Sequence record: PV714129.1
DNA: 64,000 nucleotides
DNA from: Escherichia phage Mizar
Direction: 5' to 3' (one strand)
Both the position numbers and the translations under genes were made by a program. Shown in pieces: positions 38,618-40,180 of the stretch. Under the pieces are notes generated by a model that searched no databases, was not told the DNA's origin, and was given only the letters and a program-made list of their open reading frames with translations. The stretch's first letter is position 1, and the number at the start of each line of letters is the position of its first letter.

Positions 38618-39188
38618 AAAAGTTTCGGATTTGTTCCCAATTCAGAGAACGAAGATTATTACGAGAGTACTGAATTACTTCAATACCAGCTTGTTTTAGA
38701 ATATCTGCCCAATTTTCAGGAGATCGGTCGTATAATTCTGCGTATACAACCTTTTTAATACCTGACTGCGTAATAGCTTTAGTGCAATCAGGACACGGAG
38801 AAAGCGTAGTATATAACGTAGCACCTTCAATAGAATTACCTTTACGAGCGGCAAACAAAATTGCATTCAATTCTGCATGGATTTCATTATTAGCAGACCA
38901 TGCACTATGAGCAGCTCGATGTTCTTTGGCTAAAACAAAATTATCTACCCGTCCAAATGCTGTAGTGCCTTCTTTATGCCCAGCAACGATGACTGGGATT
39001 GGTTTATTCTTCAACCAACCATTTTCAGATGCATGTTCGCAACAGTTAACGCCACCTGCAGGTGAACCGTTATACCCAGTAGAAATAATGCGCCCATCTT
39101 TTTCAATGACTGCGCCAACTTTCCATGAACAACATTTTGATTCTTGAGAAATCAGATATGCAATCTGAAGGTATGTGCTAGCTTTCAT
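38607..39188 (-). CDS. cd: dCMP deaminase
   Basis: 193 aa, same length as T4 Cd; zinc-binding motifs HAELNAI and SPCPDC of the cytidine/dCMP deaminase fold. Confidence 0.95.
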   Translation of the reverse strand: MKASTYLQIAYLISQESKCCSWKVGAVIEKDGRIISTGYNGSPAGGVNCCEHASENGWLKNKPIPVIVAGHKEGTTAFGRVDNFVLAKEHRAAHSAWSANNEIHAELNAILFAARKGNSIEGATLYTTLSPCPDCTKAITQSGIKKVVYAELYDRSPENWADILKQAGIEVIQYSRNNLRSLNWEQIRNFCGE

Positions 39189-40180
39189 TATTGAACCTTA
39201 TTAATATAAGTTAACAGCTCTTTAGTTTGTTCCCAACTGATGCACGCATCGGTAACGGAAACGCCATAGGACATATTATCGGAAATTTTTTGATTTCCTT
39301 CATGTAGGAATGATTCTATCATAATTCCTTTGACCAAATCATTAGCTGCTAAATTTTTACCAATACCAATTTGATTGCTATAATGTCCATCAGCGTTTGC
39401 ATGGCTACAGTCAACCATTACATAATGATTCAGACCTACTGCCCTTGCTTTGTTAGAAGCTTCTTGAATATCAGAAGAATGATAGTTCGGGCCGTTGGTC
39501 CCGCCACGCAATACGATATGCGTATTCTGATTACCTTCAGCTTCAACAATGCCTACAGTACCATCGACGTCCATACCCATATACCGATGAGGCCAGGCGG
39601 CACTATACATCGCGTCTGTAGCTACTTTAATAGAACCATTGGTTGCGTTCTTGAAGCCTACGCACATCGGTAGACCCGAAGCAATTTCACGATGTGTCTG
39701 ACTTTCAGTCGTACGGGCGCCAATAGCAACCCATGAGAAAATACCAGAAAGATACTTAATCGTGAATGGGTCTAATACTTCAGTTGCTAATGGAAGTCCC
39801 ATACGTAGAAGTTTACGACACAATGTTCGTGCAACTATAAGACCGTGGTTCATATCAAAACTTCCGTCAAGATATGGATCATTTACAAGACCTTTCCAAC
39901 CTACGGTAGTTCGAGGCTTTTCAAAATAAACGCGCATCACTAACAGAACATTAGGAAGACGAGTTTGAAGTTCAGCCAGACGTTTGCCGTATTCAACAGC
40001 AGCAATAGGGTCATGAATTGAACAAGGACCTACAACAATAAGTTTGCGTGGGTCTTCACCGTTCATAATCGAATTAACTTGTTCGCGATGAGAAGCCACT
40101 TGTGATGCGTAAGCTTCCGACAAAGGAATAATCTCAGCCAGTTCTTTTGGAGAAATAAGTTTTCTGATGACAGGTAACAT
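39188..40180 (-). CDS. 3-deoxy-D-arabino-heptulosonate-7-phosphate (DAHP) synthase, class I (AroG/AroF/AroH-like)
   Basis: 330 aa; alignable along its length with E. coli AroG as recalled: GPCSIHDP, MRVYFEKPRTTVGWKGL, GARTTESQ, GFKN, LRGG, DCSHAN, MIESFLHEGNQ, SVTDACISWE. Metal- and PEP-binding residues are conserved. Stop shares a nucleotide with the cd start (TAATG). Confidence 0.93.
   Translation of the reverse strand: MLPVIRKLISPKELAEIIPLSEAYASQVASHREQVNSIMNGEDPRKLIVVGPCSIHDPIAAVEYGKRLAELQTRLPNVLLVMRVYFEKPRTTVGWKGLVNDPYLDGSFDMNHGLIVARTLCRKLLRMGLPLATEVLDPFTIKYLSGIFSWVAIGARTTESQTHREIASGLPMCVGFKNATNGSIKVATDAMYSAAWPHRYMGMDVDGTVGIVEAEGNQNTHIVLRGGTNGPNYHSSDIQEASNKARAVGLNHYVMVDCSHANADGHYSNQIGIGKNLAANDLVKGIMIESFLHEGNQKISDNMSYGVSVTDACISWEQTKELLTYINKVQ

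Follow-up and report, generated by a model that had tools for sequence, protein, structure and literature searches.

The closest described relatives of the enzyme reported here are the three DAHP synthase (DAHPS) isozymes of Escherichia coli, AroF, AroG and AroH. In AroG the P150L mutation gives full resistance to feedback inhibition by Phe and the S180F mutation also gives resistance, and the main chain of the inhibitor is contacted by AroG Q151 and S180, equivalent to AroF Q152 and S181 (PMC9529685). Deletion of Ile11 from AroF results in a feedback-resistant enzyme (PMC10729320). The logic of these engineered alleles is that one deregulated first enzyme gives a higher flux through the shikimate pathway (PMC9529685, PMC10729320).

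DAHPS genes are already known in T4-like phages at the level of annotation. They are present in more than 200 phage records, have their own PHROG (5045) and are a routine annotation, as an accessory gene, in Mosigvirus and several further T4-like genera; that such phages carry the gene is not new. It was noted in passing in the phiC120 genome paper (PMC8022965), and a study of Klebsiella phages proposed that the Kanagawavirus DAHPS is an auxiliary metabolic gene (AMG) for aromatic amino acids (PMC11845039). The literature we searched holds passing mentions only, and no functional study (enzymology, expression or phage knockout) of any phage DAHPS was found in it. The present analysis adds a measured N-terminal shortfall of 8–9 residues, the replacement of the allosteric pocket throughout the phage clade, and a probable origin for the cassette carrying the gene, with an empty site in RB69 and its relatives.

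The DNA analysed, here called the window, is a stretch of 64,000 nucleotides from Escherichia phage Mizar (PV714129.1). It belongs to Mosigvirus, the region being approximately 99% identical to genomes of that genus such as JS09, CEV1 and FP43. The features around the DAHPS gene are as follows.

38607..39188, minus strand: cd, dCMP deaminase (Pfam dCMP_cyt_deam_1, E=1.6e-26).
39179..39190, minus strand: right direct-repeat copy, TAATGAAAGCTA, comprising the DAHPS stop overlapping the cd start.
39188..40180, minus strand: DAHPS coding sequence, 330 aa, type I-alpha, Tyr-type lineage, ATG start (profiles, alignment and AF2 model).
40186..40190, minus strand: Shine-Dalgarno sequence AAGGA of the DAHPS gene, 5 nt upstream of the ATG and overlapping the stop of the upstream 41-aa remnant ORF (direct reading of the sequence).
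40189..40314, minus strand: 41-aa remnant ORF, 5'-most in the cassette, derived from a divergent cd.2 (DUF7320) gene of which it represents the C-terminal half, with phrog_15876 and partial DUF7320 matches.
40292..40303, minus strand: left direct-repeat copy, TAATGAGAGCTA, comprising the cd.2 stop and microhomology; bounds the 1113-bp insert.
40301..40537, minus strand: cd.2 (DUF7320), which directly abuts cd in empty-site genomes.
40566..40594, minus strand: sigma-70-like promoter match TTTACA-17-TACTAT with TG, between cd.3 and cd.2 (pattern match only).
41277..42176: pseT, polynucleotide kinase, upstream of DAHPS (profile search).

An initial annotation, made from the letters of the sequence, had called the 330-aa ORF a class I-alpha DAHPS, and Pfam, NCBIfam, PHROG, alignment and an AF2 model all agree. 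The protein matches the Pfam family DAHP_synth_1 (PF00793) with an E-value of 5e-75 and 252 bits (cut-off 25.5), and the NCBIfam models TIGR00034 (aroFGH; 428.5 bits, cut-off 173.2) and NF009395 (455.9 bits, cut-off 343), scores that lie far above chance. It falls below the cut-offs of the AroG equivalog NF006723 (364.5 bits, cut-off 568) and the AroH subfamily NF009396 (386.7 bits, cut-off 463). Residues 1–330 align with positions 8–337 of the 341 in PHROG 5045 (phospho-2-dehydro-3-deoxyheptonate aldolase, AMG category) with an E-value of 2.5e-182. Among solved structures the top sequence match is the Tyr-sensitive E. coli AroF (PDB 6AGM, E=4e-105).

The metal ligands C53, H260, E289 and D311 correspond to AroG C61, H268, E302 and D326 and are invariant in 15 of 15 aligned sequences. 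Residues binding PEP and erythrose-4-phosphate (E4P) are all kept: R83, K88-P89-R90-T91, A155-R156, K177 and R225, corresponding to AroG R92, K97-T100, A164-R165, K186 and R234. Every AroG-type metal-ligand and PEP-binding motif quoted in the initial annotation is present and maps onto AroG catalytic residues, and alignment with AroG, AroF and AroH reveals no loss among them. Across the phage DAHPS clade the alignment shows all 13 of the catalytic residues checked to be invariant.

The AF2 model (pLDDT 91, pTM 0.91) superimposes on the solved I-alpha DAHP synthases 1KFL, 1QR7, 4HSN and 3TQK with TM scores of 0.94–0.96. It is a (beta/alpha)8 barrel with strands at 198–203, 209–214 and 220–224; the beta6a/6b insertion is kept and the N-terminal extension is shortened.

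PF00793 spans both DAHP and KDO8P synthases, so that this match would also accommodate another PEP-utilising enzyme such as KDO8P synthase; the ORF might alternatively be an inactive or moonlighting remnant. KdsA enzymes have KANRS where DAHPS has KPRT. The phage protein has the KPRT motif and the metal-binding Cys, and in the NCBIfam profile search no KdsA model matched at E≤0.01, every match being to a DAHP-synthase model, which excludes the KDO8P synthase identity. The invariance of the catalytic residues throughout the phage clade and an intact ORF in 139 near-identical records also speak against a remnant, and we regard these alternatives taken together as highly improbable. Comparison with phage AV113 gives a dN/dS of approximately 0.12 for DAHPS, which hints at purifying selection, with only 10 differences behind the value. 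From the active site and the modelled fold we infer that the ORF very probably encodes a catalytically active enzyme, one that would condense PEP and E4P to DAHP in a metal-dependent reaction.

The phage DAHPS shares its fold, length class, metal ligands and PEP/E4P residues with AroF, AroG and AroH, to which it is 51%, 47% and 44% identical, respectively. It differs from them in having a shorter N-terminus, two shorter surface loops, a shorter C-terminus and the substitutions P to I, Q to K, S to P and F to Y. The N-terminus had been described as about 20 residues shorter than that of AroG, and this estimate has to be corrected. There are 50 residues ahead of the GPCS motif in the phage enzyme, compared with 58 in AroG and 59 in AroF, a difference of 8–9. 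Twenty residues is the difference from AroG over the whole protein, the remainder of which is due to the two short internal loop deletions and the shorter C-terminus.

The allosteric pocket was surveyed in an alignment of the window protein, the three E. coli isozymes and 119 database homologues. An identity cut-off split the homologues into 23 cluster representatives of the phage clade and the 96 nearest non-clade matches. In the window protein the pocket residues AroG P150, Q151, S180 and F209 are replaced by I141, K142, P171 and Y200, respectively, and the N-terminal acidic/amide pair is deleted. The distribution of these changes is given below.

AroG P150: Ile in 22 of 23 phage-clade sequences, Pro in 89 of 96 nearest non-clade sequences.
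AroG Q151: Lys or Arg in 23 of 23 phage-clade sequences, Gln in 95 of 96 nearest non-clade sequences.
AroG S180: Pro in 23 of 23 phage-clade sequences, Ser in 94 of 96 nearest non-clade sequences.
AroG F209: Tyr in 23 of 23 phage-clade sequences, Phe in 94 of 96 nearest non-clade sequences.
N-terminal [D/N/E][N/D] pair (AroG D6-D7, AroF N7-N8): deleted in 23 of 23 phage-clade sequences, present in 95 of 96 non-clade sequences.

A lone sequence among the 96 combines the Lys, Pro and Tyr residues with a short N-terminus; it looks like that of Providencia phage P0030, lying just under the identity cut-off.

Because the inhibitor-contact residues are replaced and the N-terminal pair is lost clade-wide, we predict that the whole phage DAHPS lineage is deregulated, and consider it rather likely that these enzymes are insensitive to aromatic amino acids. 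The initial annotation had suggested possible feedback resistance on the basis of the short N-terminus. The suggestion gains support from the inhibitor-contact substitutions, while length alone, at 8–9 residues, is a poorer basis for it. The phage changes occur at the same pocket positions, or in the same region, as those in the engineered aroG P150L, aroG S180F and aroF delta-Ile11 alleles (PMC9529685, PMC10729320). Unlike the engineered changes, those in the phage enzymes are natural, are combined in one protein and involve other substitutions (P150 is replaced by Ile and not by Leu, S180 by Pro and not by Phe), and for this reason feedback insensitivity stays a prediction.

Some features of the protein would suit an ordinary AroF-like isozyme that is still feedback-regulated and, once the host is shut off, just adds to the host DAHPS so that Phe, Tyr and Trp are at hand for making phage proteins. 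The Tyr-sensitive AroF is both the nearest solved structure and the nearest isozyme, and at the site distinguishing Tyr-type from Phe-type enzymes (AroG S211, AroF G212) phage DAHPS has Gly, as AroF does. D146 and the regulatory beta6a/6b region are also kept, and existing AMG commentary presumes a supply of aromatic amino acids (PMC11845039). Set against these points, every clade member has replaced three of the inhibitor-contact residues and lost the N-terminal pair, features kept in approximately 93–99% of the nearest non-clade sequences, and alterations at the same sites remove the inhibition of AroG and AroF (PMC9529685, PMC10729320). We therefore think a regulated isozyme unlikely. Given the retention of D146 and beta6a/6b, the predicted deregulated enzyme could possibly have a residual or different effector.

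The gene lies between the cd.x genes and cd in the cd–pseT region and runs in the same minus-strand direction as td and frd, as the initial annotation had it. The proposed TAATG overlap with the dCMP deaminase gene is also there, the DAHPS stop TAA (39190..39188) sharing one base with the cd ATG. What lies between cd.2 and cd varies from phage to phage. T4 does not have DAHPS and, as the initial annotation stated, carries a small cd.x ORF here; this is cd.1 (112 aa; 3197..3535 of the compared T4 segment), which is unrelated to DAHPS. RB69 (at 5252 of the compared segment) and JK36 have nothing in the slot, and the window has the DAHPS cassette (39188..40314).

Filled and empty sites differ by 1113 bp, bounded by the 12-bp repeats TAATGA[G/A]AGCTA at 40303..40292 and 39190..39179, which could provide for exact loss of the cassette in nature. 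The insert begins with 120 bp that encode the 41-aa ORF, corresponding to a foreign cd.2 reduced to its C-terminal half. This remnant is nearer to the Kanagawavirus cd.2 (SYLITIE…VES.SVY) than to the resident cd.2, and DAHPS itself is likewise nearest to the Kanagawavirus copies. Since both parts of the cassette point the same way, the most likely course of events is its transfer from a Kanagawavirus-like T4 relative into an ancestor of Mosigvirus. Microhomology would have served for the left crossover, and the right one would have taken place inside cd. Comparison with phage AV113 (window 38890..40480) places a sharp mosaic boundary here: DAHPS is 99.0% identical, whereas the first 300 bp of cd are only 92% identical.

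The empty site, with cd.2 abutting cd, is present in 11 Mosigvirus records (RB69, JK36, JK42, moha, mar005P1 and ECO111 5-P), and the filled site in 139. Because empty sites exist within the genus, DAHPS is an accessory, dispensable gene in Mosigvirus. RB69, JK36 and moha are natural comparators for the filled genomes, although they are not isogenic. The name mar005p1 is attached to two differing records, OZ035759.1 with the DAHPS cassette and the LR0273xx records (LR027390.1) with the empty site; these may be different isolates under one species name.

Two further annotations in the window deserve mention. The gene at 38309..38617 (minus strand) encodes a gp31.1-like protein with a WYL_2/SH3 beta-barrel that matches PHROG 1086 (unknown function) with an E-value of 7e-36. 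Many Mosigvirus records in GenBank name it 'tail fibers protein', and its match to a 'tail fiber' PHROG reaches only 2e-8; the name looks like a propagated mis-annotation. RnlB (RNA ligase 2), annotated as two CDS pieces in JS09 (47282..48281), is an intact 335-aa ORF at 15511..16518 (minus strand) of the window, and the JS09 split is absent here.

The promoter-like match between cd.3 and cd.2 occupies the position of an annotated T4 early promoter. No terminator-like site was found on the minus strand from pseT to cd, a search for a dedicated promoter or terminator of DAHPS gave nothing above shuffle expectation, and directly upstream of DAHPS there is no MotA-box match. DAHPS is probably made early in infection, in a transcript running from cd.2 to cd. 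This co-transcription is an inference, because promoter matches in the region are as frequent as in shuffled sequence. Over the whole window the MotA-box-like pattern TGCTTNA-N10-14-TANNNT has 19 matches where shuffles predict 6.5; 17 are on the minus strand (for example 41584..41560 and 38306..38282), an excess in keeping with middle promoters of the T4 type running the way of the early genes.

A tblastn search of phage sequences found the DAHPS protein in 212 records, 139 of which (Mosigvirus) are at least 95% identical. Identity is approximately 77% in Kanagawavirus (Entb_45, PEi26), 66–69% in T4-like phages of Klebsiella, Serratia and Erwinia, and 58% in Proteus Bragavirus. The gene lies between pseT/cd.x and cd in Entb_45 (Kanagawavirus), Marfa (Marfavirus), PM2 (Bragavirus) and a Logan sequencing-run contig (SRR28261677). 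The PHROG 5045 proteins of the Kanagawavirus phages Entb_45, PEi20/PEi26 and KLB31, Klebsiella phage Marfa and Proteus phage PM2 share this pseT–cd locus and the pocket signature. The Mosigvirus copy, 77% identical to those of Kanagawavirus, differs in standing beside the truncated foreign cd.2 remnant, which marks a secondary transfer.

In a neighbour-joining (NJ) tree the phage DAHPS clade is monophyletic in 100 of 100 bootstraps. The initial annotation had raised the question whether the enzyme groups with the host AroF, AroG or AroH; in the tree the phage clade falls beside Enterobacterales AroF, but this placement recurs in only 5 of 55 bootstrap replicates. An origin from host AroF is accordingly not adopted, the bootstraps supporting no sister group within the Tyr-type branch. 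Recent capture from the host is excluded at 51% identity to E. coli AroF. We place phage DAHPS in the Tyr-type (AroF-like) branch, as a long-standing lineage specific to phages.

Several candidates for independent acquisition by phages were considered. In the record named 'Acinetobacter phage MD-2021a' (CAKLQH020000056.1) aroF_2 lies beside cobS, cobT and cobU; it resembles a bacterial contig filed as phage and should therefore not be counted as a phage DAHPS. Human-faecal 'Bacteriophage sp.' scaffolds were set aside as unverified records of a different DAHPS subfamily. Aeromonas phage HJ05 (79 kb, not T4-like) encodes a distant DAHP synthase (3899..5062 of the compared segment; 38% identity) that has a long N-terminus and does not have the equivalents of AroG P150, Q151 and S180. 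HJ05 may be the sole apparently genuine separate acquisition among those examined.

An infected cell no longer transcribes host genes, and the host's own isozymes are inhibited by feedback or repressed whenever aromatic amino acids abound. Beyond its first enzyme the shikimate pathway is largely constitutive. Under these circumstances a single deregulated first enzyme would be enough to keep up carbon flow through the pathway toward chorismate. With its rewritten allosteric pocket, phage DAHPS most likely ignores Tyr, Phe and Trp, and the reasoning behind the engineered alleles, that one such enzyme raises flux, would apply to it (PMC9529685, PMC10729320). The best overall explanation, to which we assign a probability of roughly 0.6, is that the cassette came from a Kanagawavirus-like relative and supplies an active, early, feedback-blind DAHPS through which the shikimate pathway stays open at its first step. 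Like the T4 AMGs cd, td, frd and nrdAB, in whose transcription block it lies, DAHPS would be an early enzyme of host-like central or precursor metabolism; it differs from them in that its step leads into aromatic biosynthesis, whereas theirs belong to nucleotide metabolism, and in being accessory rather than core.

The surroundings of the gene raise the question of what the pathway is kept open for. A deregulated DAHPS could have been selected for chorismate products other than amino acids, chiefly p-aminobenzoate (pABA) and folate for td, frd and the dCMP-modifying enzymes, or as a sink for PEP and E4P that pulls sugar phosphates toward pentoses. The gene sits in the early block of nucleotide metabolism, where it adjoins cd and is transcribed the same way as frd, td and nrdAB, and a feedback-blind enzyme would be of most use when aromatics are abundant, as PheA, TyrA and TrpE would then be inhibited and chorismate free. 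Gene order in the hyperplastic regions of T4-like phages is weak evidence of function, the T4 slot holding the unrelated cd.1, so proximity to frd, td and nrd argues weakly for a folate role. Moreover, frd and td are present in all T4-like phages and DAHPS in some only, and no other shikimate, pABA or folate-synthesis gene was found in 50 kb of the homologous JS09 region.

The presence of an arabinose-5-phosphate isomerase module in several DAHPS-carrying genera would also suit a role connected with sugar phosphates. The RB69 isomerase was used in a tblastn search and its matches were compared with the distribution of DAHPS, and the overlap is partial. There are 25 Klebsiella phage records with DAHPS, and Klebsiella is outside the ten most frequent host names of the isomerase matches. 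Acinetobacter phages have 57 records with the isomerase as against four DAHPS matches, and of these four at least one is a bacterial contig filed wrongly. In Acinetobacter and Karamvirus phages the isomerase occurs without a phage-clade DAHPS, and RB69 has the arabinose module without DAHPS. A tight link to the arabinosyl-cytosine DNA modification of Mosigvirus was rejected on these grounds; in the papers found on this modification there is no mention of DAHPS. Selection for folate or as a sugar-phosphate sink, in the form described, thus seems to us decidedly unlikely. A broader form of the idea, which we consider rather unlikely, is that T4-like phages have long kept a DAHPS with a dismantled regulatory pocket, and that its selected role is forced chorismate production (pABA/folate, quinones) or an E4P/PEP drain under host pathway shut-down, not aromatic amino acids.

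The useful outcome for the preferred reading, an open shikimate entry maintained by a feedback-blind enzyme, is a testable prediction, that a whole phage lineage is feedback-insensitive through defined residue changes. If true, nature would have in phage DAHPS its own equivalent of the engineered feedback-resistant aroG and aroF alleles. If the prediction holds, these phages would offer metabolic engineers a natural deregulated DAHPS, and would provide a clean case of a lytic phage that by one gene overrides the allosteric regulation of a biosynthetic pathway of its host.
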